From: a virus
Taxonomy: Duplodnaviria; Heunggongvirae; Uroviricota; Caudoviricetes
Strand: one strand, 5' to 3'
IMG/VR virus record: IMGVR_UViG_3300033074_000580
Coordinates: 95,270-159,269 of that record
DNA length: 64,000 nt
Both the position numbers and the translations under genes were made by a program. The first letter of the stretch is position 1, and each line of letters opens with the position of its first letter. Below are positions 12,659 to 26,108 of this stretch, piece after piece. The notes under the pieces were generated by a model. It was not told where the DNA came from. It did no database searches and worked only from the letters and a program-made list of their open reading frames with translations.

Positions 12659-14311
12659 TTACTCGACGATTAAGTCAACTTTATTTCCTTTCGCGTCAAC
12701 AGCATCAGATAAAACAAAGTAGAATAAACCGGCGGTATTTGTTAAAGTTGTTTTTGGTGTGAATACTAACTTATATGGAGTACCAACTTTAATTCTTGCA
12801 GTTTTCAATTGGTCAATAGAACCAAATGTTAATCTACCGTTTTCATGTGTTGAGAAGTTAGTTATTGTAGAACCTGCATCAAATATTACATTATCTAAAT
12901 TTAATTTAGACTCATCGTAATTCATCACAACTTGTAAACCCGCTAACTCTGCCTTTGTTAATGTTGTTGTTAAAATTACTTTACCACCTTCTAATGTTGA
13001 TGTTATACCTAATGTTGCCTTTTCAGCTGCAACTGTTTGATATGCCATTGGTGCGGTGCTCATAGATTTAATTGAATTTGTTGCGATTTCACTTACCGCA
13101 TTTGTATATTGTCCTGCACTTATTTTACTAGCAATTACCGAAGGGTCTGATGAATGTGACCAGTTTAAGTCACCACCCCAAGCAAATACTACATACACTT
13201 CTTTAATTGGTGAATCAATTAAAACTCTATTTTTTACAACACCATCTAACCAACTTTGATTCAATAGACCACTATACCATCTTACCGATGTTGAAGTTGA
13301 TGTAGGAATCATTGCCACAGAACTCATGTCTTGTCCCATAACATGTGCAAATAATGAGTAAGAATCGGCCTCACCAAATGGATTTGCGTTATTTGTAACT
13401 TTACCTACTTTCTTTTCCAATGTTGGTAATGTGAAGAAGTTTGGTGTTCCACTAATGTCAGTTTGTGAGTGTCCTAAAAATGCTTTGTATGCATCAGATA
13501 CTGTCACAATATTATTCATCCAAGCTTTAGTCATTGCCGGTCCAACAAATACACCAACTGAATCGCCAACTTTAACTTGTGTCGTGAATAATGCTTCACC
13601 ACTTGCATCCAATGGTAATTGTGCGATAGGTTGTTGCGACCAATCGATTTCACCACTACCATTTGATTTCAATCTCATCAATTGAACACTATGGTCAGTA
13701 ATCGTATATCCTTGTGGATATAATACTTTTACTTTGAATTGTGACGTGTTACCAACAACATTACTTAATGATGACCAACCACCACCATAGATTGTACCAA
13801 CATTTTGACCGGCAGTATCCGTACCTGTTGCCAAATCTATTTTAAAAATATTGTTATATGTGTTTTGGTCTTTTAGTATGTATTTTTGAGTTGCAATTAA
13901 CCCACTAATAGACACATCCGCTCTTTGAACTGTTAATTGACCAACATTCCAATCTGCATTTACCACGTAATTCCATGGAGTTAATCCATATTGAACATCT
14001 AAATCATTATCACTAGCACCACCATTAAAATTAAATTTGTAGTTATTCCAACCGGTGTAGAATGTTTGTGCTGAAACACCTTGATTAAATGTGGTTGACA
14101 CATAAGCTAATGCCTTGTTGTTATATTGGTATCTGAACCAAAGATAACGTGGATTTTTAATTACTTGTCCTTTTGTTAAATTGTATTTTACGGTTATTGT
14201 GTCTCCAACCTTTAAACCTGTTGCAGGTGTTAAAGATTGACTAATCGTCAATTGTCCAAAAGATGTTAAGGCGAACAATAAGAAAACGCCGAGAGAGATT
14301 AGTTTTTTCAT
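12659..14311 (-). CDS. secreted cohesin-like/dockerin-like modular protein
   Basis: KVGDTITVKY..FRYQYNNKAL; VTVSDAYKAF (matches VSVSDVYLAF in neighbour); LAGLQVVMNYDESKL. Confidence 0.6.
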   Translation of the reverse strand: MKKLISLGVFLLFALTSFGQLTISQSLTPATGLKVGDTITVKYNLTKGQVIKNPRYLWFRYQYNNKALAYVSTTFNQGVSAQTFYTGWNNYKFNFNGGASDNDLDVQYGLTPWNYVVNADWNVGQLTVQRADVSISGLIATQKYILKDQNTYNNIFKIDLATGTDTAGQNVGTIYGGGWSSLSNVVGNTSQFKVKVLYPQGYTITDHSVQLMRLKSNGSGEIDWSQQPIAQLPLDASGEALFTTQVKVGDSVGVFVGPAMTKAWMNNIVTVSDAYKAFLGHSQTDISGTPNFFTLPTLEKKVGKVTNNANPFGEADSYSLFAHVMGQDMSSVAMIPTSTSTSVRWYSGLLNQSWLDGVVKNRVLIDSPIKEVYVVFAWGGDLNWSHSSDPSVIASKISAGQYTNAVSEIATNSIKSMSTAPMAYQTVAAEKATLGITSTLEGGKVILTTTLTKAELAGLQVVMNYDESKLNLDNVIFDAGSTITNFSTHENGRLTFGSIDQLKTARIKVGTPYKLVFTPKTTLTNTAGLFYFVLSDAVDAKGNKVDLIVE

Positions 14312-14313
14312 TT

Positions 14314-14832
14314 TTACTTTTTGTTAAAAAATATTTTATTGATTAGTGATTCGCACGTCTTTTTTATTGCGGACGACAACGCTTGTTGATTTACTTTTCC
14401 ACTACCTTCATCGGTAATTAAAGTTGAAGTTGAAATTTCTGAACTTGATTCTTCAGCCGTACCATCTTTTATCTTCTTACCGTTATTATCGACAAGAAGA
14501 CCTTTCATCACGACCAAAGTTTCTTCAACATCTGAGTGAAATACTGAGACGTTACGCTTTGTTCTGTTTACGTCAAAATAAAGAATATCCGCACTGAAGA
14601 CTAAGTCTGCTTGACTTTGGTCCTCAACAATTGAGAATTCTTTATCCTGTAAAATTTCTTGAAAAATGTTCTTTACACCGAACGCAAAGTTTCGATTACC
14701 GGTGAACTTACCAATCTTGATTTTGTTCTCTACTGCACTGATATACACCTTTTTAGTGTCCTGAGCAAATGAAGAGAGTGCTAAGGACAAAGTGAATAAA
14801 AGGAGGAGAGAGATTCCCTTTATTTTTGTCAT
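14314..14832 (-). CDS. secreted CsgG-like/alpha-beta envelope protein
   Basis: Signal peptide; similar layout to 7299-8018 (FAFGVKNI..., ALSSAIKK); TATTTAT motif just upstream. Confidence 0.5.
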   Translation of the reverse strand: MTKIKGISLLLLFTLSLALSSFAQDTKKVYISAVENKIKIGKFTGNRNFAFGVKNIFQEILQDKEFSIVEDQSQADLVFSADILYFDVNRTKRNVSVFHSDVEETLVVMKGLLVDNNGKKIKDGTAEESSSEISTSTLITDEGSGKVNQQALSSAIKKTCESLINKIFFNKK

Positions 14833-14923
14833 ACTGATAAATATCAGGTTCGGGCAACTAGTCCAAAAAAAATTATGTTATAACTTTTTTTTATCTTTTC
14901 TTGTTTTTCTCGATACTTATTAG

Positions 14924-14931
14924 TATCTTTG
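14924..14931 (+). promoter_or_regulatory. Bacteroidota-type -7 promoter element for tRNA cluster 1 leader
   Basis: TATCTTTG matches TAnnTTTG. Confidence 0.7.
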
Positions 14932-14959
14932 TAAAAGATTTAAATAAAAAACAAATTCA

Positions 14960-15058
14960 ATGAGACAATTAGTACATACAATGTCGTTTATTATCTGTTC
15001 AAAATGGGCGGATGAGCGTTCTATGTCTATAGGTCTCGATGATACTGATGTGGGTTAA
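14960..15058 (+). CDS. 32-aa leader peptide of putative attenuator 1 (MRQLVHTMSFIICSKWADERSMSIGLDDTDVG)
   Basis: Lies between promoter and terminator; codons match the cluster 1 tRNAs; contains antiterminator segment 15033-15039. Confidence 0.75.
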   Translation: MRQLVHTMSFIICSKWADERSMSIGLDDTDVG

Positions 15059-15081
15059 ATTAGTTTAACTTAAAATATTAG

Positions 15082-15113
15082 AAAACCTCGGGACAAAATC
15101 TCGGGGTTTTTTT
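15082..15113 (+). terminator. attenuator/terminator hairpin upstream of tRNA cluster 1
   Basis: AAAACCTCGGGA/TCTCGGGGTTTT stem + T run. Confidence 0.8.
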
Positions 15114-15118
15114 ATTTT

Positions 15119-15191
15119 GGGCCGGATGTCAATGGCAGACCACCTGATTTGCAATCAGAGTGAAAGGGTTCGATTCCCTACGTGTCCACCA
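15119..15191 (+). tRNA. trnA: tRNA-Ala(UGC)
   Basis: Anticodon loop TTTGCAA, G3.U70, encoded CCA; irregular acceptor stem. Confidence 0.8.
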
Positions 15192-15193
15192 TA

Positions 15194-15268
15194 TTCTTAG
15201 GTAACTCAATGGTGAGAGTACCTCGCTGATACCGAGGAGGTTGGTAGTTCGAATCTACCCCTAAGAAC
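15194..15268 (+). tRNA. trnI: tRNA-Ile(GAU)
   Basis: TTCTTAG/CTAAGAA acceptor; CCTCG-CTGATAC-CGAGG; TTCGAAT. Confidence 0.9.
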
Positions 15269-15272
15269 TGAA

Positions 15273-15345
15273 GGAGATGAAGCTAACTTAGTAGAAGCGA
15301 AGGACTGAAAATCCTTAGGAATTGGAGCGTAACCAATCATCTCCA
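15273..15345 (+). tRNA. trnF: tRNA-Phe(GAA), atypical T-loop AGCGTAA
   Basis: GGAGATG/CATCTCC; AAGGA-CTGAAAA-TCCTT. Confidence 0.85.
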
Positions 15346-15411
15346 CAAAACCAATTTGATAAATGATACGAGCCTCCAAAGTTCGAAATGAGTTATCTTA
15401 TTGGTTTTAAT

Positions 15412-15485
15412 GACCTCGTAGCTCAATTGGTTAGAGCACTACACTTTTAATGTAGGGGTTCTGCGTTCGAGTCGCAGCGGGGTCA
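15412..15485 (+). tRNA. trnK: tRNA-Lys(UUU)
   Basis: GACCTCG/CGGGGTC; CTACA-CTTTTAA-TGTAG. Confidence 0.92.
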
Positions 15486-15491
15486 CAACAC

Positions 15492-15562
15492 ACGGGTGTA
15501 GTTCAATGGTAGAATTATGGTCTCCAAAACCATCGATGGGAGTTCGAATCTCTCCACCCGTG
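15492..15562 (+). tRNA. trnW: tRNA-Trp(CCA)
   Basis: ACGGGTG/CACCCGT; ATGGT-CTCCAAA-ACCAT. Confidence 0.92.
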
Positions 15563-15577
15563 CTAAAATTAAAAACA

Positions 15578-15823
15578 ATGGAACAAGATAACGTTTTAAA
15601 CAGATTGGTACCAAGATTAAAAAAGATAGGAATCAACATAGAAATGTCGGGTAACTATCCTTGGATTTATCTTGATAAGGTGAATGGTAATAGAATTAAA
15701 AAAGAAGATTACTTCTGTGGTAATCACGGATTTACAATTGCATTTTTACCTATAAAACCTAATGTTAAAATGGAATTGACGGACATAAAAGAAGTTTTTA
15801 AAGTGATAAGAAAATACAAATAA
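15578..15823 (+). CDS. hypothetical protein inside the tRNA array
   Basis: Start moved to ATG 15578 (the longer ORF overlaps tRNA-Trp). Confidence 0.65.
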   Translation: MEQDNVLNRLVPRLKKIGINIEMSGNYPWIYLDKVNGNRIKKEDYFCGNHGFTIAFLPIKPNVKMELTDIKEVFKVIRKYK

Positions 15824-15852
15824 TGTTTACTGTTTATAGTAAATAGTAAATA

Positions 15853-15924
15853 GGTCTCTTGGTGTAATGAATAGCACGAAACACTACGGATGTTTTGGTA
15901 AGGGTTCAAATCCTTTAGAGACCT
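15853..15924 (+). tRNA. trnR: tRNA-Arg(ACG)
   Basis: GGTCTCT/AGAGACC; AAACA-CTACGGA-TGTTT. Confidence 0.9.
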
Positions 15925-15984
15925 CAATGTTCACAAATTTTAGATGTTCACGGAACGTGAACAGAAGAAAAAAGTGAACAAACA

Positions 15985-16059
15985 AGTCAGGTTGGCCGAG
16001 TTGGTTTAGGTGATGGTCTGCAAAACCATTTACATTGGTTCGAATCCAATACTTGACTC
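15985..16059 (+). tRNA. trnC: tRNA-Cys(GCA)
   Basis: AGTCAGG/CTTGACT; ATGGT-CTGCAAA-ACCAT. Confidence 0.9.
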
Positions 16060-16063
16060 ATAT

Positions 16064-16135
16064 GGTGTTTGAAGCTTTAAGGTGAAGCACGAGTTTGTGG
16101 AGCTCGGGAAGTCGGTTCGATACCGTCCTAACACC
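16064..16135 (+). tRNA. trnH: tRNA-His(GUG)
   Basis: 8-bp acceptor with G-1; CGAGT-TTGTGGA-GCTCG. Confidence 0.88.
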
Positions 16136-16140
16136 CAAAT

Positions 16141-16209
16141 TGCGGGAAGAAAAGGTTTCCCACCGGTCTCATAAGCCGAGTGTTTCAGGTTCGATTCCTG
16201 ATCCCGCAA
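16141..16209 (+). tRNA. trnM: tRNA-Met(CAU), probably elongator, short D-arm
   Basis: TGCGGGA/TCCCGCA; loop CTCATAA; TTCGATT. Confidence 0.75.
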
Positions 16210-16250
16210 CAAAAAGATTTTGAATATTTTGTAATTTCACAATTTATTCT

Positions 16251-16258
16251 TATCTTTG
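16251..16258 (+). promoter_or_regulatory. internal Bacteroidota-type promoter upstream of tRNA-fMet
   Basis: TATCTTTG. Confidence 0.6.
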
Positions 16259-16268
16259 TAAAACAAAT

Positions 16269-16341
16269 CGCGAGATAGTAGCAGCGGTAGCTCGCAAGGC
16301 TCATAACCTTGAGGTCGGGGGTTCGATTCCCTCTCTCGCAA
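16269..16341 (+). tRNA. trnfM: initiator tRNA-fMet(CAU)
   Basis: C1:A72 mismatch; loop CTCATAA. Confidence 0.88.
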
Positions 16342-16344
16342 CAA

Positions 16345-16608
16345 CAGGTGAAGACTGTGGTGGAACCCCACGGTATATGAATCCTAAACAGCCGTCTTGA
16401 TTCGCGGTATCAGAGCGGTGAAGGTAGAGTCACTATAAGTGGGGAGTAATTAACCCAATTGCGAAAATGTGACCACCAAGTGTAGAGGTACATTTGGTCA
16501 TGATGTTCGAATGGGAACGAAAAACCTGTAACTTATTGAGACTAACTCAACGAGGACTTTGTTAACCATGGCATGACCAGGAGGTGCAATTTAAGGTGAG
16601 TTAGAATC
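16345..16608 (+). ncRNA. unidentified ~260-nt structured RNA
   Basis: CAGGT/ACCTG long-range stem, TGACCA..TGGTCA and CTAACTCA/TGAGTTAG helices; higher GC, no ORF. Confidence 0.55.
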
Positions 16609-16613
16609 AAAAT

Positions 16614-16686
16614 GGGATTGAGGTCAAACGGTTAAGATGTCGCCCTGTCACGGCGCACGGAGCGGGTTCAACTCCCGTCAGTCCCG
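16614..16686 (+). tRNA. trnD: tRNA-Asp(GUC)
   Basis: GGGATTG/CAGTCCC; loop CTGTCAC. Confidence 0.9.
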
Positions 16687-16689
16687 CAA

Positions 16690-16897
16690 TGAGTAAGAGA
16701 TACTCAGGAAGTTTGGTAACGTTCTTTATAAATGTTATAGTTGACGCCTCAAACAACTCAAAGATGAGGTCGTGGGAACGAAGGACATCAACAATCCTCC
16801 CAGTAGTTGTGACTTTTATGTGCGGCTAAGGACCGTCGAGAGTTTTGAAGAGAAAAACCTAAGAAAATCCTACTCACCCGAATCTCAAGGTGGGGCA
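16690..16897 (+). ncRNA. unidentified ~210-nt multi-hairpin RNA
   Basis: TGAGTA-AGAGA-TACTCA, CCTCA/TGAGG, CTCACC/GGTGGG hairpins between tRNAs. Confidence 0.45.
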
Positions 16898-16901
16898 AAT
16901 T

Positions 16902-16988
16902 GGAGAGTTGGTAGAGCGGTTGAATACACCAGTCTTGAAAACTGGCATACTGGAAACGGTATCCGGGGTTCGAATCCCTGACTCTCCG
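16902..16988 (+). tRNA. trnS: tRNA-Ser(UGA)
   Basis: GGAGAGT/ACTCTCC; CCAGT-CTTGAAA-ACTGG; long variable arm. Confidence 0.92.
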
Positions 16989-16993
16989 CATTT

Positions 16994-17065
16994 GCTCGGT
17001 TCGACTAGTGGTTAGGTCGCATCCCTTTCACGGATGTAGCACGGGTTCGAATCCCGTACCGAGTA
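16994..17065 (+). tRNA. trnE: tRNA-Glu(UUC)
   Basis: GCTCGGT/ACCGAGT; CATCC-CTTTCAC-GGATG. Confidence 0.92.
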
Positions 17066-17107
17066 CTTCGTATATTTATATATAGATGGGTTACGACATC
17101 TAAAAAA

Positions 17108-17560
17108 ATGAAGAAAGTTTTCTTATTATTAGTCATTATGTTTTTGGGAGTGGAAACAATGACGTTTGGACAAGATATCAAATCATTATTTGATAAAACA
17201 AAATCACAAGAAGTTCTAATTTTCGGAACTAATAAATCTCAAGACGGTTACATTACGGGTGGTTATATGATTGGTGAATGGGGTCTTTATGCGGGATTTC
17301 CATATTCAGAAAGAAACAACTTATTAAACACATCAAATGGTACTGTTTCAAAGCAAATGAGATTCGGTATTTTAAAACAATTAAAACCTGATAAAATTTT
17401 AATGGGTGCAGGTGCTCAACCAACAAATGAAGGGACGAAATTAAATTGGTTTATTGGTTATAATCCATTACGTAGTAAAGACATGAAACTGTTAATAACA
17501 GGAAATGTAATCGGCTCAGAATTTGTTTTAGGTGCCGGTTTATCTTATAAAGTAAAATAA
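17108..17560 (+). CDS. secreted small beta-barrel-like protein between the tRNA clusters
   Basis: Signal peptide, alternating beta-strands, C-terminal GAGLSYKVK; TATTTATA upstream. Confidence 0.65.
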   Translation: MKKVFLLLVIMFLGVETMTFGQDIKSLFDKTKSQEVLIFGTNKSQDGYITGGYMIGEWGLYAGFPYSERNNLLNTSNGTVSKQMRFGILKQLKPDKILMGAGAQPTNEGTKLNWFIGYNPLRSKDMKLLITGNVIGSEFVLGAGLSYKVK

Positions 17561-17595
17561 TTTTAAAAAATATTTTACATTTTAAAAAATTTTTG

Positions 17596-17603
17596 TATAT
17601 TTG
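17596..17603 (+). promoter_or_regulatory. Bacteroidota-type promoter for tRNA cluster 2 leader
   Basis: TATATTTG. Confidence 0.7.
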
Positions 17604-17620
17604 ATTATACTTATTAAACA

Positions 17621-17731
17621 ATGAAGAACATAAATAATATATTGACCCTTACGAGTAGACCAGTTAATAATGGTAACGGGTATGGTGTGCAACCGTTATA
17701 TTACTTATGTTCGGATATCAATAAAGGATAA
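17621..17731 (+). CDS. 36-aa leader peptide of putative attenuator 2 (MKNINNILTLTSRPVNNGNGYGVQPLYYLCSDINKG)
   Basis: Lies between promoter and terminator; codons 3-29 all read by cluster 2 tRNAs; antiterminator segment 17708-17714. Confidence 0.78.
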   Translation: MKNINNILTLTSRPVNNGNGYGVQPLYYLCSDINKG

Positions 17732-17754
17732 TAAAATTTAAAACTTATATCGAG

Positions 17755-17784
17755 ACCCGAACACAAAAAATGTTCGGGTTTTTT
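17755..17784 (+). terminator. attenuator/terminator hairpin upstream of tRNA cluster 2
   Basis: ACCCGAACA/TGTTCGGGT stem + T run. Confidence 0.82.
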
Positions 17785-17844
17785 GTTTTATGATTTTTTA
17801 TTCTTATATTTGAATTGTAGTTCTTTGACATTGTGAGAAAATTT

Positions 17845-17929
17845 GCCGAGGTGATGGAATGGTAGACATGACAGACTTAAAATCTGTTGGGACGAAAGTC
17901 CCGTGCGGGTTCGACTCCCGCTCTCGGTA
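17845..17929 (+). tRNA. trnL: tRNA-Leu(UAA)
   Basis: ACAGA-CTTAAAA-TCTGT; variable arm. Confidence 0.92.
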
Positions 17930-17964
17930 CAAACACTATCGTTCTTTGATAAAATTAAAAGCGT

Positions 17965-18210
17965 ATGGATATACTATCATTTATTTTAGGAATGTCCGTT
18001 GTGGTGGTTATCGCAGTTGCGGTAGTTGCTGTAATGGCCTTTGTTAAGGTGAAGAAACATAACAAAGAAATTGAAACAATCCACACAATTATGAGTGGAG
18101 AATTTGAACGAGTGAACAGAGATATGACGGATATGCAAAGAGATATTTTCTCTTCGTTAGATTCCCGATTAGATAAACTAGAAAGTAAATTAAGCAGCCG
18201 TAAGGCATAA
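17965..18210 (+). CDS. membrane-anchored coiled-coil protein
   Basis: N-terminal TM, heptad C-terminus. Confidence 0.65.
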   Translation: MDILSFILGMSVVVVIAVAVVAVMAFVKVKKHNKEIETIHTIMSGEFERVNRDMTDMQRDIFSSLDSRLDKLESKLSSRKA

Positions 18211-18249
18211 AGATTAAATAAAAACTTTCAAAGACGATAGTGTTAATTT

Positions 18250-18323
<74 letters not shown>

Positions 18324-18324
18324 C

Positions 18325-18465
18325 AAAGATAATGGTCTGATGTTATTATGGTTGTCGACAAACCTGATAACTACTTCAACAGACAGCACCCTCTGCCGAG
18401 GCCTCAGTAAAACTCTGATGAAGCAGTTAAGATTGGAACGAGACGGGTATTCCATCATTGTCTTT
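18325..18465 (+). ncRNA. unidentified ~140-nt structured RNA
   Basis: AAAGATAATG/CATTGTCTTT closing stem enclosing several hairpins. Confidence 0.5.
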
Positions 18466-18471
18466 ATTTTT

Positions 18472-18547
18472 ATAGATGTAGAGGAGACAGGTTTATCTCG
18501 CCACATTTGGGATGTGGAGCACGTAGGTTCGAATCCTACCATCTATA
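18472..18547 (+). tRNA. trnP: tRNA-Pro(UGG)
   Basis: ATAGATG/CATCTAT; CCACA-TTTGGGA-TGTGG. Confidence 0.9.
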
Positions 18548-18553
18548 CAACAC

Positions 18554-18625
18554 GCTGATGTAGCTCAACGGCAGAGCAATTGACTGTTAATCAATAGGTT
18601 GAGATATCGTAATTCTCCATCAGCG
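18554..18625 (+). tRNA. trnN: tRNA-Asn(GUU), atypical T-arm
   Basis: GCTGATG/CATCAGC; ATTGA-CTGTTAA-TCAAT. Confidence 0.85.
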
Positions 18626-18631
18626 CAACAT

Positions 18632-18712
18632 GGCCGAGTGGTGTAATGGGAGCCACGCTAGTTTTAGGCACTAGTGTCGAAAGACGTGAGAGTTCGAATC
18701 TCTCCTTGGTCA
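18632..18712 (+). tRNA. trnL: tRNA-Leu(UAG)
   Basis: CTAGT-TTTAGGC-ACTAG; variable arm. Confidence 0.88.
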
Positions 18713-18718
18713 CAAAAT

Positions 18719-18802
18719 TGGAGGATGGGTGAGTGGCTAAAACCGGCAGACTGTAAATCTGCTCTCAGAACGGGTACGGGGGTTCGAATCCCTCTCCTCC
18801 AA
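18719..18802 (+). tRNA. trnY: tRNA-Tyr(GUA)
   Basis: TGGAGGA/TCCTCCA; GCAGA-CTGTAAA-TCTGC. Confidence 0.92.
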
Positions 18803-18808
18803 CATTTT

Positions 18809-18882
18809 GGACTTGTAGCTCAGTAGGTTAGAGCAACTGACTCATAATCAGTAGGTCCCTGGTTCGAGCCCAGGCTGGTCCA
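18809..18882 (+). tRNA. trnI: tRNA-Ile2(CAU, lysidine type)
   Basis: ACTGA-CTCATAA-TCAGT; body resembles bacterial Ile2 rather than Met tRNAs. Confidence 0.75.
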
Positions 18883-18961
18883 CGCAATGTGTCATTAGTC
18901 CCTGAAGTAATTCAAACTAATGGTCTCGGTAGACAGAACGCGTCTGATTCTACCCACAATT

Positions 18962-19033
18962 AGTCTCTTAGCTCAGAGGGAGAGCACTTGCCTTACATGC
19001 AAGGGGTCGGGATTTCAAAATTCTCAGGGACTA
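18962..19033 (+). tRNA. trnV: tRNA-Val(UAC)
   Basis: AGTCTCT/AGGGACT; CTTGC-CTTACAT-GCAAG. Confidence 0.88.
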
Positions 19034-19039
19034 CAACAA

Positions 19040-19115
19040 GCGGAAGTAGCTCATTCGGTAGAGCGACGCCTTGCCAAGGCGTAGGTGGCCAGTTCGAGCC
19101 TGGTCTTCCGCTCCA
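19040..19115 (+). tRNA. trnG: tRNA-Gly(GCC)
   Basis: GCGGAAG/CTTCCGC; ACGCC-TTGCCAA-GGCGT; encoded CCA. Confidence 0.93.
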
Positions 19116-19118
19116 TAA

Positions 19119-19190
19119 GCTCGGTTAGTTCAACCGGTAGAACAAATGATTTGTAATCATTAGACAACAGTTCGAATCTGTTACTGAGCT
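19119..19190 (+). tRNA. trnT: tRNA-Thr(UGU)
   Basis: GCTCGGT/ACTGAGC; AATGA-TTTGTAA-TCATT. Confidence 0.9.
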
Positions 19191-19244
19191 CAAAATAAAA
19201 TAAATACTTCCAAGTTTTTAATGTATTTGGAAGTATTTATAGAT

Positions 19245-19676
19245 ATGAAAACAAAAATATGCCCAAAATGTGAAATAGAATTACCATTAGATGATGAACA
19301 TTTCGCATCAAGATATGATAGAAAAGAAAAAATGTTCCAACATATCTGTAGAAAATGTCAAAGTGAGTATAGAAAAATTCACTATGAAAAAAATAAACAA
19401 AAATATATTGATAAGGCTAAGGTTTTTACTCAATCAATTAAAGAATGGTTTATTGAATATAAAAAAACATTAAAATGTAAAGAATGTGGTGAGGATAGGT
19501 ATTGGGTGTTAGATTTCCATCACAGGGACCCAAAAGAAAAAGATATTGATGTTTCTACTTTAATTAGAAAAGGAAACAAAAATAAAATATTAAAAGAAGT
19601 TGAAAAATGTGATGTTCTATGTTCTAATTGTCATAGAGATTTACATTTTAAACAAAATAATGCGGATTTCGCCTAG
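19245..19676 (+). CDS. HNH homing endonuclease
   Basis: N-terminal CxxC pairs; LDFHHRDP..CDVLCSNCHR; start moved to ATG 19245. Confidence 0.85.
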   Translation: MKTKICPKCEIELPLDDEHFASRYDRKEKMFQHICRKCQSEYRKIHYEKNKQKYIDKAKVFTQSIKEWFIEYKKTLKCKECGEDRYWVLDFHHRDPKEKDIDVSTLIRKGNKNKILKEVEKCDVLCSNCHRDLHFKQNNADFA

Positions 19677-19735
19677 TTGGTATGGCATCACACTTCCAAT
19701 GTGAAATAGGGTCGGTTCGAGCCCGATAATCCGCT
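19662..19735 (+). tRNA. trnG: tRNA-Gly(UCC)
   Basis: GCGGATT/AATCCGC; TCACA-CTTCCAA-TGTGA. Confidence 0.9.
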
Positions 19736-19741
19736 CATAAC

Positions 19742-19816
19742 TGTCCTCTCGTATATCGGTTATTACATCTGGTTTTGGTCCAGATAAGTGGGGTTCGATT
19801 CCCTGGGGGACATCCA
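19742..19816 (+). tRNA. trnQ: tRNA-Gln(UUG)
   Basis: TGTCCTC/GGGGACA; TCTGG-TTTTGGT-CCAGA; encoded CCA. Confidence 0.9.
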
Positions 19817-19828
19817 AAATTTTAAACT

Positions 19829-20059
19829 ATGAGTATTTTTGCAATTTATTACGTAATATGTATTGCGTATTGTTTTTATCAATTAAATAAGAAATATAAA
19901 AACAGAGGTATCGATTACGGAACATCACCTGAATTAGATTCCATTATGGTTTTAGTAATGGCTTGGATTTTAGCACCAATTGATGTTTCTATAACTTGGA
20001 TACGAATGGTAAAAGAAGCTGAAGAAGCTAAAAGAAGACAAGATAAACAAGTACTTTAA
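19829..20059 (+). CDS. small two-TM membrane protein
   Basis: Two hydrophobic segments. Confidence 0.6.
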   Translation: MSIFAIYYVICIAYCFYQLNKKYKNRGIDYGTSPELDSIMVLVMAWILAPIDVSITWIRMVKEAEEAKRRQDKQVL

Positions 20060-20060
20060 C

Positions 20061-20146
20061 GGAGAGTTACCCAAGTTGGTGAAGGGGGCAGTTTGCTAAA
20101 CTGTTAGGTCGTTCGCGGCGCAAGGGTTCGAGTCCCTTACTCTCCG
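20061..20146 (+). tRNA. trnS: tRNA-Ser(GCU)
   Basis: GGAGAGT/ACTCTCC; loop TTGCTAA; variable arm. Confidence 0.92.
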
Positions 20147-20151
20147 CACAT

Positions 20152-20300
20152 TGTAGTGTGACGAAACTTTGGCAGACGTGCCCTCCTGTCTCGGGGGTGT
20201 GGACAAAGAAATAGACAAGTGATATGGGGTAGACCACCTTCCGGCCGGATGTGTTACTTGTTGAATCTCCACTTGAGTGGTTCGAATCCCTCCACTACAG
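20152..20300 (+). ncRNA. 149-nt tRNA-like RNA with giant branched variable arm
   Basis: TGTAGTG/CACTACA acceptor, Leu-like D-loop, CCCTC-CTGTCTC-GGGGG, TTCGAAT T-loop, ~75-nt insert. Confidence 0.75.
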
Positions 20301-20331
20301 CTAAACAATAATTATAATAAATGAAAATGTA

Positions 20332-20793
20332 ATGAAAAAATTTAGAACTCTCTACGGAACTCCAATTCCAGATGTTGTTGAATACATCAGAGAGTACATC
20401 TCAACAAGAGAGGATGTGGAAATCCTTATTGGTTCTGACTCACAATGTTATGGTAATCGTAAAACAATTTATGGTATCGTAGTTGCTCTTTATACAAAGG
20501 GTAAAGGTGCTCATGTATTGTGTACACGTGAAACTGTTCCTATGGAACATAACACACCATCAAGATTACTAAGTGAAGTTTGGAAATCTCTTGAGATTGC
20601 TGAATATTTAAAAGATAATGGGTTACCAAAACCAACTTGGATTGATATTGATTTGAATCCTGACCCTAAATACAAATCTAATTCTGTTTTAAGACAAGCA
20701 GTTGGTATGGTTGAAGGTATGGGATATAAAGTTAGATACAAACATGTTGGTGCTTTAATGACCTATGCTGCAAATCATTTAGTAAGATTATAA
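20332..20793 (+). CDS. YkuK/DUF458 RNase H-like protein
   Basis: ILIGSDSQ, RLLSEVWKS, IDIDLNP..KSN pattern. Confidence 0.8.
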   Translation: MKKFRTLYGTPIPDVVEYIREYISTREDVEILIGSDSQCYGNRKTIYGIVVALYTKGKGAHVLCTRETVPMEHNTPSRLLSEVWKSLEIAEYLKDNGLPKPTWIDIDLNPDPKYKSNSVLRQAVGMVEGMGYKVRYKHVGALMTYAANHLVRL

Positions 20794-20794
20794 T

Positions 20795-21526
20795 ATGAAG
20801 ATTGTTGGTTTTGGTGATAGCTTCATCCAACCCAAAAGTACGGTTGAATATCAATACACAAGATTAGTTATTGATAAGTTTGGTGGGGAGTTTGAATTAT
20901 TTGGTGTCAATGGATGTGGAATTTGGGATACCTTTTTTGAATTTAAAAGATACGCCGAAACAAATAAATCATTTTCTGATGTCGATTTAATTTTATTTGC
21001 ATGGTCAGACGCGAGTCGATTATATAATAGTGAAGTTAGAAATGCCTGTTATGCGAATTCAATAAATCACAAAGACTCAAAAGACCCATTTTGGATTGCG
21101 GTTAAAAATTATTACGAACATATTTTTGATATTGATAAGACAAGATATGAATTTGATGCGTTCTATTATTGGGTAGATGATTGGTTTGAGAAAAACTATC
21201 CTGACAAGAAAATTGTCAATATGTATAGTTTTCCTAAAATGACCAAATCATCGGCGGTGTATTTCGAATATTTGGATATAGTTAAAAATAATCCTGAAAA
21301 TGAAGTTTATTATCATGAATTTAAAAATTCAGTAACAATTAAACCGTCTTTATTACATTTTAGTTTAAACGATGAATGGCCCGAAGATAATGATTTAAGT
21401 AGAGAACACAGATTCCAACATTTAACACCTAAAATGCATAAAGAGGTGTCAAAAATTTTAATCGAATCGATTGAAAAGTATGAAAAAGGAAAAGTTTTCA
21501 CTTATAAACCGAAAAAATTTATTTAA
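20795..21526 (+). CDS. SGNH-hydrolase-like protein
   Basis: N-terminal GDSF, C-terminal HLT..H. Confidence 0.55.
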   Translation: MKIVGFGDSFIQPKSTVEYQYTRLVIDKFGGEFELFGVNGCGIWDTFFEFKRYAETNKSFSDVDLILFAWSDASRLYNSEVRNACYANSINHKDSKDPFWIAVKNYYEHIFDIDKTRYEFDAFYYWVDDWFEKNYPDKKIVNMYSFPKMTKSSAVYFEYLDIVKNNPENEVYYHEFKNSVTIKPSLLHFSLNDEWPEDNDLSREHRFQHLTPKMHKEVSKILIESIEKYEKGKVFTYKPKKFI

Positions 21527-21578
21527 TATTTTTTATTCTTAAAATTTTTATCTATATTTGTAATATAAAGATTGAATT

Positions 21579-21800
21579 ATGAAATGTATTAAGTTAATTA
21601 AGGCAAGTAAAGGTCACGAAATTGGTGATATACTAAGAGTAGATGACAATGAAGCGGATTTAAGAGTTAAAGGTGGTTATTGGGCATTTGCACCAAAGAC
21701 TGAATATAAACTATTTAAAAATCCTGATTATAAAACTAAGAAGACAACTGAAAAAGTTTCTTCTAAGAAACAATTAAAGAAGACAAAAACTTCTGAATAA
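21579..21800 (+). CDS. small basic hypothetical protein
   Basis: TATATTTG promoter at 21553. Confidence 0.6.
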   Translation: MKCIKLIKASKGHEIGDILRVDDNEADLRVKGGYWAFAPKTEYKLFKNPDYKTKKTTEKVSSKKQLKKTKTSE

Positions 21801-21850
21801 AAAAAATAAAAAAAGTTTCACAAATATTTTGTTTTCTCAAAAAGTCTTCG

Positions 21851-21887
21851 TATATTTGTAAAACAATAAGAGAAAAAGTTCTTTGAA
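21851..21887 (+). promoter_or_regulatory. promoter (TATATTTG) plus boxA-like AGTTCTTTGAA upstream of the large ncRNA
   Basis: A similar GTTCTTTGA motif occurs at 17820 and 17941 in tRNA cluster 2. Confidence 0.55.
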
Positions 21888-21894
21888 TTAAAAA

Positions 21895-22700
21895 TATTGG
21901 CCGCCTATGGTCATTAAATAAACTGTGAAAGCAGTATAAAGTGAGTCTGAATTAGTTATTTGGATTTGCGGTTTTCGAAAGAGAACTCGAGTAGGCAAGC
22001 GGGATATCATTGAACCGTAAGTACTGAGGGTAACACTGTAGGGAAAGTGGTTTGGTGACTGAGCGATACCGGTCGTTCAGTTGAGGTGGGAACACTAATA
22101 AGAATAACTCGTAGAATTGTTGTGAGAAGTATGGTCATCCAACTATACAATTGCGGAATTCAATACAATGGGAATCTTAAAACCGAAAGGTATGATTGAG
22201 TACAGGTGGTGCTGTTACAGTCCTTGATTTGAATCTACCAAGGTTCATGTCTCGAAGGGGTCCAAAAGTGTGGAGGTCGGGAGACTTCAGAGGGTAGTTT
22301 AGTATTTCGTCGCTCAAAAGGTGATGAAGCTGGTTGACGGACCGCTACCTTCCAAATCGGTAACTAAAATCATTTTGTTAATTTTGGTTTAACAACTTAA
22401 AAGCAAAAGGAAAAGTGTCCGTCAGTCATTGGAGACAGGTGACTACATAGTCGTGAGGGGTTCACGGCCACAAAGGGTCCCAAACCCGATGTGAATTATG
22501 AGAAAGTTCTCTAGTCCCGCAAGGATGAGTTGGGGTGGCAACCTCGAAGAGTAATGAGTATTATGAGAGTATCTAATGACTCAAGGATTGGTTAATCTAA
22601 TTGACCGTCACTGGTTGGTACAGTTCAAAAGACTGTGGATATGAAAGGAAACAATAATCTTTCTAAAGTCAACTACTAAAACTTGTAATCTCAGAGTTTT
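21895..22700 (+). ncRNA. ~800-nt large structured RNA, GOLLD-like
   Basis: ORF-free, raised GC, many GNRA hairpins, repeated YCAAAAG loops; size and tRNA-proximal phage context fit GOLLD; family not verified. Confidence 0.65.
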
Positions 22701-22814
22701 CTTTTATCTATTAACAGTTATCTTTTAACTTTTTATTTTTTCTTAGTTTTTTACGAATAAACTAAGTGGTGGAATTAAGTACGATATTAAAAACCGTGCG
22801 GCCCTCAACAAATT

Positions 22815-22842
22815 AGTCAGAAGAAATTCTGACTTTTTTTTT
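22815..22842 (+). terminator. Rho-independent terminator
   Basis: AGTCAGAA-GAAA-TTCTGACT + T run. Confidence 0.8.
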
Positions 22843-22875
22843 GCTTTTTAAAATATATTTTGTATATTAGTTATT

Positions 22876-23625
22876 ATGAGAATAGTTTGTATATCCGACA
22901 CACATAGTTTACATGAAAACATGAGACATGAATTACCAAAGGGTAATATATTGATTCATGCGGGTGATATTTCTAATAGAGGTGGTGAAAGAGATGTAAC
23001 TAATTTCATACATTGGTTTCAAAACATTGAAGGTTATGATATGAAGATATTTGTATCAGGTAATCATGATTTTTGTTTTGAGAGAGTTAATGAACCACAT
23101 CATAAAGGTGACTATGATTGGTTACATCATTTAATGTCAGAAGAAAATTTATCACAATCAGATGTGGTTTATTTGGAAGATGATTATGTATTATATGTAA
23201 GTGACGAACTTTCAATACCTTTAAAAATTTATGGTAGTCCTTGGCAACCATGGTTTTATGATTGGGCATTTAATTTACCAAGATTAGGAACTGAATTACA
23301 AGAAAAGTGGGATATGATTCCTATGGATACCGATATTTTAATTACTCATGGACCACCTAATGGTTATGGTGATTTTGTAGATAATTTTAGACAACCAAAT
23401 CGTAATGTGGGTTGTGAATTATTAAGAAATAAAATTGAAGAAATAAATCCAATATTAAATATCTTCGGTCACATACATGAAGGATATGGTGTTTATACTA
23501 ATGAAAAAACCACATTTGTTAATGCATCAACATGTACTGCGAGATATGAACCAACAAATAAACCAATCATTATTGATTTAATCGAAATTGACGGTAAAGT
23601 AATTGCAACATATGTCCAAGAATAA
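22876..23625 (+). CDS. calcineurin-like metallophosphoesterase
   Basis: ISDTH, HAGD, GNHD, LITHGPP, GHIHE. Confidence 0.9.
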   Translation: MRIVCISDTHSLHENMRHELPKGNILIHAGDISNRGGERDVTNFIHWFQNIEGYDMKIFVSGNHDFCFERVNEPHHKGDYDWLHHLMSEENLSQSDVVYLEDDYVLYVSDELSIPLKIYGSPWQPWFYDWAFNLPRLGTELQEKWDMIPMDTDILITHGPPNGYGDFVDNFRQPNRNVGCELLRNKIEEINPILNIFGHIHEGYGVYTNEKTTFVNASTCTARYEPTNKPIIIDLIEIDGKVIATYVQE

Positions 23626-24295
23626 TCAACCAATTAGTGTAGTAATATCCACAAGAAAAATTGATGATACGTACCTAAAGCACGTAGAAAAAATGTTTTC
23701 ACATCCAAAAACGGAAATACTAATTTACGAAAATGAAGGTGAATTTACACTACCTGAATTATATAATAAAGGTTTAGACGAATCGTCAAATGATATTGTT
23801 GTTTTCATGCACGATGATTTAATTTTAGAAACACCAAACATCACACCTAAAGTTGTTAAACTGTTTGAACAAAATCCAGAATTTGGAATTATAGGTTTGG
23901 CGGGTACTGATAATTTAATAAGTGGTATGTGGTGGCAAGATAGAGAATCGATGTACGGTGTTGTGGGTCATGAACATGAAGGTAAACGACATGTGAATCA
24001 CTATTCAAAACAATTGTTTGGTGAAAAACCAAAAGAGGTTGTGGTAATTGATGGTTTATTTATGATGGTACATAAGAATCGAATTAAACATAGATTTAAT
24101 GAAGAATTTAAAGGATTCCATTTTTATGATTTACCATTTTGTTTAGATAATTTTACAGATGGGGTTAAAGTTGGTGTAACCACTAAAATAATGGTAACAC
24201 ATAAATCCATTGGTATGGTAAATAAACAATGGGAAAAATATAAACTCTTTTTTGAGGCATTATATGAGAAACGATTCCCAATTAGAGTTAACTGA
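23612..24295 (+). CDS. GT-A fold glycosyltransferase (GT2-like)
   Basis: YNKGL, FMHDD, IDGLFM, FHFYD. Confidence 0.8.
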   Translation: MSKNNQPISVVISTRKIDDTYLKHVEKMFSHPKTEILIYENEGEFTLPELYNKGLDESSNDIVVFMHDDLILETPNITPKVVKLFEQNPEFGIIGLAGTDNLISGMWWQDRESMYGVVGHEHEGKRHVNHYSKQLFGEKPKEVVVIDGLFMMVHKNRIKHRFNEEFKGFHFYDLPFCLDNFTDGVKVGVTTKIMVTHKSIGMVNKQWEKYKLFFEALYEKRFPIRVN

Positions 24296-24337
24296 TTTTA
24301 ATATAATAACAGATATTTATATATAAACTTTTAAATT

Positions 24338-24553
24338 ATGAAGAAAATTTTTGAATTGATTAAGAAACTTTTGGGTGGCGGTTCTGCTGCTGAAAAGGCA
24401 GTACAATTAACCCAACTTGAGACTGAAGTTAAAAAAGAAGTTGCTGAAGTTAAAGAAGAAGTTAAAGAAATCGTAGCTGAAGTTAAAAAGAAGGTTGGTA
24501 GAAAACCGGCAGCTAAAAAACCGGCAGCAAAAACAACTGCTAAGAAAAAGTAA
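24338..24553 (+). CDS. small protein with histone-H1-like KPAAK tail
   Basis: KKKVGRKPAAKKPAAKTTAKKK; TATTTATA upstream. Confidence 0.7.
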   Translation: MKKIFELIKKLLGGGSAAEKAVQLTQLETEVKKEVAEVKEEVKEIVAEVKKKVGRKPAAKKPAAKTTAKKK

Positions 24554-24633
24554 TTATTTTTAATTAACATATACTGTTTTAGGGTTAAAATTTGTTTTTT
24601 AACCCTTTTTCATCTATATTTGTATTACCATTT

Positions 24634-25035
24634 GGGGATGTTTGGATTTGATTTCAGGTATCAGGGATAAATGGCACGTAGTCAGACTTCATCTATGACT
24701 TAAATCCACGGTGGAAAAAATTAGACGGCAACGTTTACAACAACATGGAAGTAGCAGGTATTCTTGCAACTTCTAACGTAGCAGTAGCCTAAGGCGAAAC
24801 TACCCTCGGGTCGACGTACATATAACCTAGGAACAGAAGTACTTAAAGTGTGATACCACTTAGAGTGTCAAAGGTCTCGTTCAGAGGGCTACCTTAAAGT
24901 GAACTCGACACAGTTATAGGGAACGATGTCAAAATAGGAACCTTTTATTTGTCAGTTGAGAACCAATTGAATAAACGTGTAGTCATTTATTGTTGAACAG
25001 GAAAGACACGGGTTCGACTCCCGTCATCTCCACCA
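24634..25035 (+). ncRNA. ssrA: tmRNA
   Basis: 5' GGGGATG / 3' CATCTCC-ACCA with G3.U; T-arm GGTTCGACTCC; tag ORF 24727-24792; TATATTTG promoter at 24615; terminator 25036-25060. Confidence 0.92.
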
Positions 25036-25202
25036 AAGGTCCTTTTTAAGGACCTTTTTTATTTAATTAAGATGAAAGTCTATTAACGAACAAAGAGGTC
25101 TTTAGGACCCCTCTGTCGAGATTAAGAACACCTCCTTTTCGTTTATAAGTATTATCGTTTAACGGCGACCAAACCAATTAAACTCTCTTATAAATATCTC
25201 AA

Positions 25203-26108
25203 TTATGCGTATTTTTGAGCAAATGCCTTTAATAATCCGATATTAAACATACCATTTAAACCACCATTTTCAGAGGAAACTTCATCTCTTCCTTCTATTT
25301 TAGCTAAATCGCTTTCAGATGTTGTTGAATTAACCATTTCAGAAAATTTTGGATTGTTTGCAAATCTTTCCAATTCTTTCGGGTCCCCCATCTTTTTTTC
25401 AAAATCACTTAAATTAGGTATACCTAAGAATGATAATAAATTATTTGCAGCAATGAAATTTCTAATATATTGTCTTTTAGCTCTACTACCTTTATATGTA
25501 ATGTTATACCATTTTGATAACCATGTACTTGGTACTTCACCTTTTTTTGCGATGTATTGTGCCAATTTTTCTTCTCTAAAGAATTTAGTTAAACCTCCAC
25601 CTATTTTACCTGTGTCGGCAATTGCATGTACAATACCTTTTGGTTTCTCTAATAATTTTGCAAAAACAGATTTGTGTGAAACAAGAGACTGTTCAACTTT
25701 TCTTGCAAATGTTGGTGAAACTTTTTCTAATTGACCTATAACCACTTTTAATGATTTGTTATCTAAATGTTTACCTAATTTCATGTATTGTTCCATTACT
25801 TTAGGATTTGCTTTTAAATATTTTACCAAATCATCAGTACTTTTAAGTGCAGTTTTTGCAACCGGATTTTTGAATATTTTAATTAAAGGTTTGGCAATAA
25901 AATCACCGACTGTTGGTATCAATGCAATTAACATTAAACCTGCATATAACCATTCTTTTTTATAACAATAGTATAATATTAAAACAAAGTCCGCAACTTC
26001 ACCAATCACAGGAAAAAAACCCGCAACCATCAAACTGTTTTCAATCCAGTTTTCATTTATAAGTTGTTTGTTCTCTAATATTTCTTTTTTATTTAAATGT
26101 TTTTCCAT
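25203..26108 (-). CDS. protein with pre-toxin TG (PT-TG)-like hydrophobic segment; putative virion/membrane protein
   Basis: VAGFFPVIGEVAD....LIPTVGD motif. Confidence 0.55.
   Translation of the reverse strand: MEKHLNKKEILENKQLINENWIENSLMVAGFFPVIGEVADFVLILYYCYKKEWLYAGLMLIALIPTVGDFIAKPLIKIFKNPVAKTALKSTDDLVKYLKANPKVMEQYMKLGKHLDNKSLKVVIGQLEKVSPTFARKVEQSLVSHKSVFAKLLEKPKGIVHAIADTGKIGGGLTKFFREEKLAQYIAKKGEVPSTWLSKWYNITYKGSRAKRQYIRNFIAANNLLSFLGIPNLSDFEKKMGDPKELERFANNPKFSEMVNSTTSESDLAKIEGRDEVSSENGGLNGMFNIGLLKAFAQKYA

Follow-up and report, generated by a model that had tools for sequence, protein, structure and literature searches.

The segment of phage DNA analyzed here occupies positions 17596–17844 of a 64-kb stretch (the window; bases 95270–159269 of the 323,865-bp IMG/VR virus record IMGVR_UViG_3300033074_000580, estimated to be 97% complete), directly ahead of the second of two tRNA gene arrays, and contains a short leader open reading frame (ORF) followed by a terminator. 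With an estimated probability of about 70%, this segment (attenuator 2) would act as a ribosome-mediated leader-peptide attenuator in which the sensor codons of the leader are those decoded by the 13 tRNAs of the downstream array. The anatomy of the sequence, the improbability of its codon run, its conservation among relatives and covariation in three helices are plain to observe, and they carry the argument that follows. An original prediction for this DNA had already interpreted the segment as an attenuator, an interpretation that is supported by folding, by compensatory changes in the three helices and by retention of the complete set of sensor codons in 37 of 39 coding variants.

Codon content of leader ORF 2

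The features on which the codon argument depends are the leader, its sensor codons and the two tRNA arrays:

17621–17731 (+), leader ORF 2: 36 codons plus TAA, with a second TAA behind it; stops at 17729 and 17732
17627–17707 (+), sensor: codons 3–29, all array-2; the family-wide sensor is codons 3–26 (17627–17698)
15119–17066, tRNA array 1: Ala, Ile-gat, Phe, Lys, Trp, Arg-acg, Cys, His, two CAT tRNAs, Asp, Ser-tga, Glu
17845–20147 (+), tRNA array 2: Leu-taa, Arg-tct, Pro, Asn, Leu-tag, Tyr, CAT (Ile2-like), Val, Gly-gcc, Thr, Gly-tcc, Gln, Ser-gct

Default ARAGORN reports 23 tRNAs and one transfer-messenger RNA (tmRNA); Rfam and relaxed ARAGORN add Ala-tgc (15119–15191), a Met-type CAT tRNA (16141–16210) and Asp-gtc (16614–16687), and the total re-derived with both is two arrays of 13 tRNAs apiece, with small ORFs sitting between the tRNAs of array 2. 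Three further low-threshold calls elsewhere in the genome (Phe, 'Stop-tta' and Thr-agt) are probable false positives and were not used. Together the arrays would decode all 61 sense codons, provided that one CAT tRNA is a lysidine-type Ile2. The CAT tRNA at 16269 carries the initiator-type C1xA72 mismatch, and the one at 18809, which the original prediction had taken to be the ATA-reading Ile2, is 81% identical to an E. coli CAT-anticodon tRNA annotated as tRNA-Ile in RefSeq, a similarity that favors the assignment and stops short of proof. Phage GenBank annotations name every CAT tRNA 'tRNA-Met' and are thus uninformative on Ile2.

Leader ORF 2 encodes M-K, then 27 array-2 codons, then Cys-Ser-Asp-Ile-Asn-Lys-Gly. 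The original prediction had counted 27 consecutive codons specific to the second array, and codons 3–29 of the ORF at 17621–17731 are indeed decoded by array-2 tRNAs only; the count is true of this genome and does not extend to the family, in which the constraint ends at codon 26. It had also been stated correctly that the sampling of all 13 array-2 tRNAs is complete at codon 24, whose last base (17692) is 15 nt ahead of position 17708, and that array-1 tRNAs are needed only at the start, at Lys codon 2 and in the tail (array-1 codons are 1, 2, 30–33 and 35). Each array-2 tRNA is represented in the sensor by 1–6 codons, with no tandem run. Array-2 codons make up 54% of the codons in the long ORFs of the phage, at which frequency the probability of 27 consecutive ones is 6e-8; the run was reached by 0 of 2,000,000 simulated 35-codon ORFs (p < 5e-7 for the codon run), and when all six frames of the 324-kb genome are scanned, the only array-2 runs that exceed it are in low-complexity repeats with 5–8 tRNA species. 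The short and apparently translatable leader ORF of ribosome-mediated attenuators is thus represented here by ORF 17621–17731, and the match of regulatory codons to regulated product by codons 3–29 and the 13 tRNAs downstream.

Relatives were reached through 61 metagenomic homologues of the 150-residue gene that lies between the arrays, through their contigs and through two DNA-pattern scans; when the 150-residue and the 243-residue neighbouring proteins were used as queries, no related loci were found among viral contigs. The 73 loci with a complete leader-2 region represent 49 unique sequences over the full extracted span and 39 distinct leader-2 coding sequences, and an alignment (A1) of 260 nt holds 47 distinct sequences with a mean column identity of 81%. 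Leader ORF 2 is intact in all 39 coding variants; the ATG is invariant, and insertions and deletions are multiples of three. Within codons 3–26 the variable columns number 6, 6 and 15 at codon positions 1, 2 and 3, and codons 17–26 are almost invariant, synonymous sites included. A local hairpin (TAACGG/CCGTTA, codons 18–26) was considered as the cause of the invariant synonymous sites and set aside: on inspection, a C/A mismatch is seen in three A1 sequences, and clean compensation is absent.

The codon checklist, comprising 13 tRNA species by codon 23–24 under the array partition of this genome, is kept in 37 of the 39 variants; one of the remaining two completes it at codon 25, and the other is without a Leu-tag codon. 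Replacements within the sensor (Ile/Thr/Leu, Thr-Ser to Ser-Thr, Val/Leu, Asn/Thr) remain array-2 with few exceptions. Codon 27 is drawn from either of the two codon sets without constraint (TGT 26, AGT 10, TAT 3, and others), with Cys in 28 sequences (TGT or TGC) and otherwise Ser, Tyr, Asn, Phe, Arg or Asp; because it varies freely, the family-wide sensor is taken as codons 3–26, and the 27-codon count holds for this genome alone. Roughly half of the two-array relatives, including locus L003, have no detectable Gly-gcc tRNA, yet the two GGT codons of leader 2 are kept in all; either Gly-tcc reads GGT there, or the checklist trails gene loss.

Alternative pairing and covariation in the proposed attenuator 2

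The leader transcript is divided into four regions, and one position in each takes part in a chain of covarying pairs:

17626–17641 (+), region 1: 5' arm of the 1:2 hairpin
17697–17719 (+), region 2: 3' arm of the 1:2 hairpin (17697–17712) and 5' arm of the antiterminator (core 17708–17714, extending to 17719); codons 26–33
17744–17763 (+), region 3: partner of region 2 (core 17757–17763) or 5' arm of the terminator (17752–17763)
17771–17790 (+), region 4 and T-tract: 3' arm of the terminator at 17771–17782
17630:17708, covarying pair, regions 1:2: AT 40, TA 5
17708:17763, covarying pair, regions 2:3: TA 37, AT 5
17763:17771, covarying pair, regions 3:4: AT 39, TA 6

The pairing motifs named by the original prediction are present where it placed them: TGTTCGG at 17708–17714 and again at 17771–17777, CCGAACA at 17757–17763, and the extension of GATAT (17714–17718) with ATATC (17747–17751). 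There are four TGTTCGG sites on both strands of the window, and three of them lie inside 17708–17777. The leader-2 transcript (17610–17790) folds with an energy of -44.2 kcal/mol (z = -3.8), and the minimum-energy fold consists of the hairpin 17626–17641/17697–17712 (1:2) and the terminator 17752–17763/17771–17782 (3:4). In partial folds the 1:2 hairpin (17626–17712) has -25.0 kcal/mol and the 3:4 terminator, a 12-bp stem (17752–17782) followed by the T-tract, has -16.2 kcal/mol; when region 1 is withheld, the 2:3 helix (17708–17719 with 17744–17763, core TGTTCGG/CCGAACA) has -11.3 kcal/mol. An intrinsic terminator is thus predicted between the ORF and the tRNAs, the 5' arm of the antiterminator lies in the end of the ORF, and a 1:2 hairpin would sequester region 2. 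As modeled, the architecture of the fold is the four-region logic of a trp-type attenuator.

Sequence variation among the relatives follows these pairings. In the 47 sequences 99% of the cells of the 3:4 terminator are paired, with compensatory changes, and the 7 core pairs of the 2:3 helix are standard pairs in nearly all sequences of A1. The 1:2 hairpin also has compensating pairs at 17631:17707 (TA 35, CG 6) and 17632:17706 (AT 40, GC 4). One position in region 2 tracks its partners in both alternative helices, so that four columns, in regions 1–4, change jointly. RNAalifold, run without a supplied structure, recovers the closing stem of 1:2 (3 compensatory pairs) and the terminator, with five compensatory pairs in all. 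The position of region 2 also makes mechanistic sense of the point at which the codon-set constraint ends, since stalling from there on would start to hide region 2 beneath the ribosome: given typical bacterial footprints, a ribosome with codon 24 in its A site would reach ~17704 and leave region 2 free, and one stalled from about codon 26 on would cover region 2 and hence give no signal.

Short ORFs are common in AT-rich spacers, and simple promoter and terminator scans find this region no richer in sites than shuffled sequence; if an ordinary terminator of the upstream 150-residue gene were followed by a common tRNA promoter, and a fortuitous ORF lay in between, the result might look similar. 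Such a coincidence is scarcely credible here, where the codon run alone (p < 5e-7) ranks first of its kind genome-wide, the ORF stays intact through 39 variants from relatives that are not near-identical (mean column identity 81%), three of the four TGTTCGG sites in 64 kb fall within 70 nt, and covariation is found in three helices.

Probable sister attenuator and single-array lineage

The upstream array is headed by a second device of the same kind:

14924–15118 (+), attenuator 1: promoter with TTG, 20-nt spacer and TATCTTTG; leader ORF 1 at 14960–15058; region 2, GTCTCGA, at 15033–15039; terminator at 15080–15112

Leader ORF 1 (14960–15058) contains 16 consecutive array-1 codons (8–23) in addition to His at codon 6, and samples 12 of 12 array-1 species by codon 20. 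Its run is the longest non-repetitive array-1 run in the genome, and no simulated ORF matched both the run and the full coverage. Two ORFs are thus found, each heading its matching array, and chance is therefore excluded as the origin of the match. The T-tract of the terminator (15080–15112) runs straight into tRNA-Ala (15119), and the energies of the alternative helices are -29.7 kcal/mol for 1:2, -17.5 for 2:3 and -16.5 for 3:4 (z = -6.7). The array against which this leader is read includes the tRNAs recovered by re-derivation: the CAT tRNA at 16141–16210 is only 70 nt long, with a reduced D arm, and without it, Ala-tgc and Asp-gtc, array 1 seems incomplete and leader 1 imperfect.

All 27 leader-1 variants keep the complete array-1 checklist, with at least one Lys codon retained at a position that shifts. 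Among these 27 variants the dinucleotides of regions 2 and 3 swap jointly, GA occurring with TC or AG with CT (pair 15038:15089 is GC in 14, AT in 8 and GT in 5; pair 15039:15088 is AT in 13 and GC in 12), and the region-3 bases also covary with region 4. Residues of the leader-1 tail change (Asp, Ser, Gly) while the RNA pairing is preserved, which argues that the tail of the ORF is under selection at the level of the RNA and not of the peptide.

In distant homologues, in which the neighbouring protein has 57–65% identity, one mixed array stands behind one leader of 50–53 codons, and these single-array leaders contain all 20 amino acids. The full array of 24 tRNAs is visible at locus L090, from a 287-kb contig, where the 53-codon leader samples 22 of 22 anticodon species and only 1 of its 53 codons, located in the structural tail, is without a cognate array tRNA (simulated p = 2.6e-4). 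The same four regions are present, and region 2 and the terminator arm change together from lineage to lineage (GTTAGGG/CCCTAAC, GTTAGAGG/CCTCTAAC and GTTAAGGG/CCCTTAAC). The first tRNA adjoins the T-tract in the single-array lineage, and no bypass promoter is visible there or at array 1, so that in both read-through of the terminator appears to be the sole visible route to the tRNAs. Leader content thus follows array content, with two complementary leaders where there are two arrays and one complete leader where there is one; of all the arguments for a functional codon match, this one weighs most.

The same comparisons bear on whether leader ORF 2 might instead encode a small functional protein, its match to the array being a by-product of an early division of the tRNA genes. 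A conserved peptide core (N-G-N-G-Y-G-V-Q-P-L) and the concentration of variability at third codon positions would fit a protein; what does not fit is that substitutions in the sensor alter the order (Thr-Ser to Ser-Thr) and type of residues while almost always staying within array-2 codons, that position 27 accepts Cys, Ser, Tyr, Asn, Phe, Arg and Asp, that leader 1 keeps at least one Lys codon while relocating it, that a leader with all 20 amino acids occurs exactly where all tRNAs share one array, and that no simulated ORF reproduces the pattern. A protein-coding role of this kind is therefore judged very unlikely, and the leader continues to be read as a sensor of decoding.

Promoters, proposed mechanism and related systems

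The elements that would start transcription on either side of the terminator, together with a word shared by the two leaders, are as follows:

17596–17603 (+), candidate promoter P1: -7 box TATATTTG of the TAnnTTTG type; the -33 element is poor, with only TTTACA upstream
17607–17616 (+), 10-mer ATACTTATTA, found also at the leader-1 promoter (14913–14922)
17782–17812 (+), candidate promoter P2: -33 TTTG at 17782–17785 (in the terminator T-tract), 19-nt spacer, -7 box TATATTTG at 17805–17812
17820–17833 (+), boxA-type element GTTCTTTGACATTG: 12 nt before tRNA-Leu and kept in 48 of 49 relatives

TAnnTTTG, the -7 element of Bacteroidota promoters (consensus TTG, 19–21 nt, TAnnTTTG), occurs in intergenic regions of the phage, whose G+C content is ~32%, and the tRNAs of the window resemble those of Cellulophaga phages and crAss-type phages; from the boxes and the tRNA resemblance the host is presumed to be a freshwater member of the Bacteroidota. 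Measured against that consensus for sigma-A, P2 has both elements at canonical spacing and P1 has the -7 box only. In the relatives, P1 matches TAnnTTTG exactly in 28 of 49 and has a canonical -33 TTG in 2 of 49; P2 is within one mismatch of TAnnTTTG in 49 of 49 and exact in 29, of which 26 also have a -33 TTG at canonical spacing. P1 and P2 are both treated as candidate promoters.

The words TATATTTG at 17596 and 17805 and GTTCTTTGAC at 17820 are confirmed, and the candidate boxA word, of the ribosomal RNA operon (rrn) type, is GTTCTTTGACA. An identical copy of the 14-mer GTTCTTTGACATTG stands 167–335 nt upstream of the 5' end of 16S rRNA at no fewer than nine alphaproteobacterial loci, and among the matches listed its linkage to rrn is confined to the Alphaproteobacteria; this identity with a pre-16S 14-mer justifies the label boxA-type. 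As expected of a boxA, the element at 17820–17833 follows a candidate promoter and stands ahead of stable-RNA genes; binding of Nus factors is putative. A literature search for boxA in Bacteroidota yielded nothing. Relative to the -7 box, the 10-mer ATACTTATTA is placed upstream at leader 1 and downstream at leader 2, and it may act as an operator common to both. Its core TATACTTAT does not vary among 47 relatives, and of the 5 copies of the full 10-mer in the 324-kb genome two are at the two leaders. With ~6 copies expected the 10-mer is not over-represented genome-wide, and was rejected as a general phage promoter word.

The original prediction had cautioned that a second promoter and a boxA past the terminator could provide a bypass or basal route, and these elements are indeed present and conserved at least as well as P1. 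Since conserved P2 and boxA elements lie between terminator 2 and the first tRNA, P1 is not the only candidate route to array 2, and attenuator 2 would modulate the array rather than act as its sole gate. Array 2 very probably has basal, rrn-style transcription from P2, to which the attenuator adds read-through from P1 on demand. The strong conservation of P2 and boxA could also mean that they essentially drive array 2, and that the product of the leader, a terminated RNA of ~175 nt or the 36-residue peptide, acts in trans in the manner of rnTrpL/peTrpL; the near invariance of codons 17–26, even at synonymous sites, would agree with this, and trans functions of attenuator-derived RNAs and peptides are documented (PMC6614838 and PMC7298713). 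An activity in trans would leave unexplained that the codon set equals the tRNA set of the adjoining array in three different leaders, that region 2 covaries with the 5' arm of the terminator, and that no bypass promoter is present at the sister devices, and the peptide tail changes freely while the RNA pairing is retained; on balance this explanation is unlikely, though less so than a small protein.

For attenuation in cis we infer promoter use, translation of the leader and each regulatory step from the sequence, as follows. Transcription from P1 (~17610) would yield a short mRNA, and the 36-codon ORF would be translated behind the moving RNA polymerase. If one or more array-2 tRNAs were scarce, uncharged or damaged, the ribosome would be slowed in codons 3–24, on region 1 or the interior of the hairpin; region 2 (17708–17719) would then be free to pair with region 3 (17744–17763) before region 4 is made, the terminator would be blocked, and polymerase would pass P2 and boxA into the tRNA array. 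With fast decoding the ribosome would cover region 2 on its way to the stop at 17729, 3:4 would form and the transcript would end at ~17786; if the leader were not translated, 1:2 would form and 3:4 would again terminate. The net effect would be negative feedback on array-2 tRNA supply, on top of basal transcription from P2. Such a device would measure the summed transit time over 24 codons rather than a single amino acid. It would react if any tRNA of the set were lost, cleaved or left uncharged, and would switch itself off once phage tRNAs had built up; the upstream array would be governed by its own attenuator of the same design.

Several points weigh against this account. P2 and boxA beyond the terminator would permit transcription of array 2 without the attenuator, and with 1–6 sensor codons per tRNA the device may be rather insensitive to one tRNA alone. 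With a 7-bp core and -11.3 kcal/mol, the 2:3 helix is of modest stability, and most of the covarying sequences come from few lineages with shared ancestry, so that the number of independent events is small. The Ile2 identity of the CAT tRNA at 18809 is supported by similarity and not proven, and the mechanism presupposes coupling of transcription and translation in the presumed Bacteroidota host.

The device very probably is a genuine attenuator, and represents a variant of leader-peptide attenuation. Enterobacteria have multivalent attenuators at ilvGMEDA, ilvBN and thr, besides those of trpL, hisL, leuL and pheL. As in these textbook cases, the phage device has a short leader that would be translated, 1:2/3:4 and 2:3 pairings that exclude each other, an intrinsic terminator ahead of the genes under control, regulatory codons about one ribosome footprint before region 2, and several codons per leader. 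Unlike them, it would control tRNA genes rather than biosynthetic enzymes; its sensor lists each of 13 tRNA species with about one to a few codons, where theirs hold tandem runs for one to three amino acids; its signal would be the supply of tRNA itself in addition to charging; and it is phage-borne, duplicated and partitioned to two arrays, with a bypass promoter at attenuator 2. T-box riboswitches likewise sense a specific tRNA state through a terminator/antiterminator switch, but bind uncharged tRNA directly and without translation, are devoted to one tRNA each, and control genes for aminoacyl-tRNA synthetases and amino-acid metabolism; a T-box identity was rejected, as neither a T-box nor another Rfam cis-regulatory family is matched at 14000–26000 (E <= 1). 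The part past the terminator resembles an rrn-type promoter with its boxA antitermination leader, since GTTCTTTGACATTG comes within ~10 nt after a TAnnTTTG box and precedes genes for stable RNAs; the likeness is limited to P2 and boxA and does not include the attenuator. The Bacteroid-trp RNA motif, reportedly described by Weinberg et al. in 2010 as a predicted Trp leader-peptide attenuator of Bacteroidetes, would, if so, suggest that leader-peptide attenuation occurs in the presumed host phylum; it differs in having consecutive Trp codons and in preceding trp biosynthesis genes, and there is no sequence relationship (no Rfam match). No publication was found in which tRNA genes or phage tRNA arrays are described as controlled by leader-peptide attenuation, which, literature coverage being incomplete, is suggestive only; the passages of PMC2965389 bearing on this point contain no mention of tRNA genes.

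Other genes and RNAs surround the two devices. The 150-residue inter-array gene (17108–17560, +) has a signal peptide-like N terminus and at least 61 metagenomic homologues (57–99% identity), always within a tRNA region, one of which is named 'opacity protein-like surface antigen' (JGI). Inside array 2, a second GTTCTTTGA at 17941–17949 stands directly behind tRNA-Leu-taa and before an 81-residue membrane-type ORF (17965–18210), and a Cys-rich HNH-like ORF lies at 19221–19676 (+); behind the array is an ORF (20332–20793, +) whose homologues in relatives carry PF04308 (RNaseH_like). In relatives differing small ORFs (HNH_4, GIY-YIG) are inserted between tRNAs, and these varied insertions suggest homing-endonuclease traffic in the tRNA arrays. 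A full-length GOLLD RNA (Rfam RF02032, 322 bits) is found at 22290–22697 (+), 2 kb past array 2; ahead of it stand a TATATTTG box (21851) and GTTCTTTGA (21878) within 21851–21886, a P2-like layout of promoter plus boxA. A phage tmRNA at 24615–25035 (+), whose tag peptide ends in ...NVAVA, starts only 12 nt downstream of a TATATTTG box. In one relative lineage (L011:5749–5822, also L012) a tRNA with a CTA anticodon (amber-reading; 'Pyl' in ARAGORN), which may be a suppressor tRNA there, lies between a 141-residue gene and leader 2, and the same lineage has additional Glu and Asp tRNAs and an odd tRNA in array 1.

The usual view of phage tRNA genes is that they are constitutive supplements for codon bias or spares against tRNA-cleaving defences. 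If the attenuator operates as proposed, the phage would instead gauge decoding speed and make tRNAs on demand, and leader-peptide attenuation would extend from amino-acid supply to tRNA supply. Taken one step further, and more tentatively, the attenuators could jointly form a phage-encoded, codon-resolved monitor of the tRNA pool of the infected cell, a reading that is possible but short of probable: damage to host tRNAs by anticodon nucleases, by other tRNA-targeting defences or by the phage's own host shut-off would slow ribosomes on the checklist and trigger synthesis of replacement tRNAs separately for each half of the genetic code, and the checklist would be repartitioned when arrays split or merge in evolution. 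The match of array partition to leader content makes the idea of tRNA supply on demand directly testable with reporters. If the attenuator does work in this way, it would also amount to a small, naturally evolved sensor for the tRNA pool, and would connect tRNA-targeting immunity with phage counter-measures in a manner open to testing.

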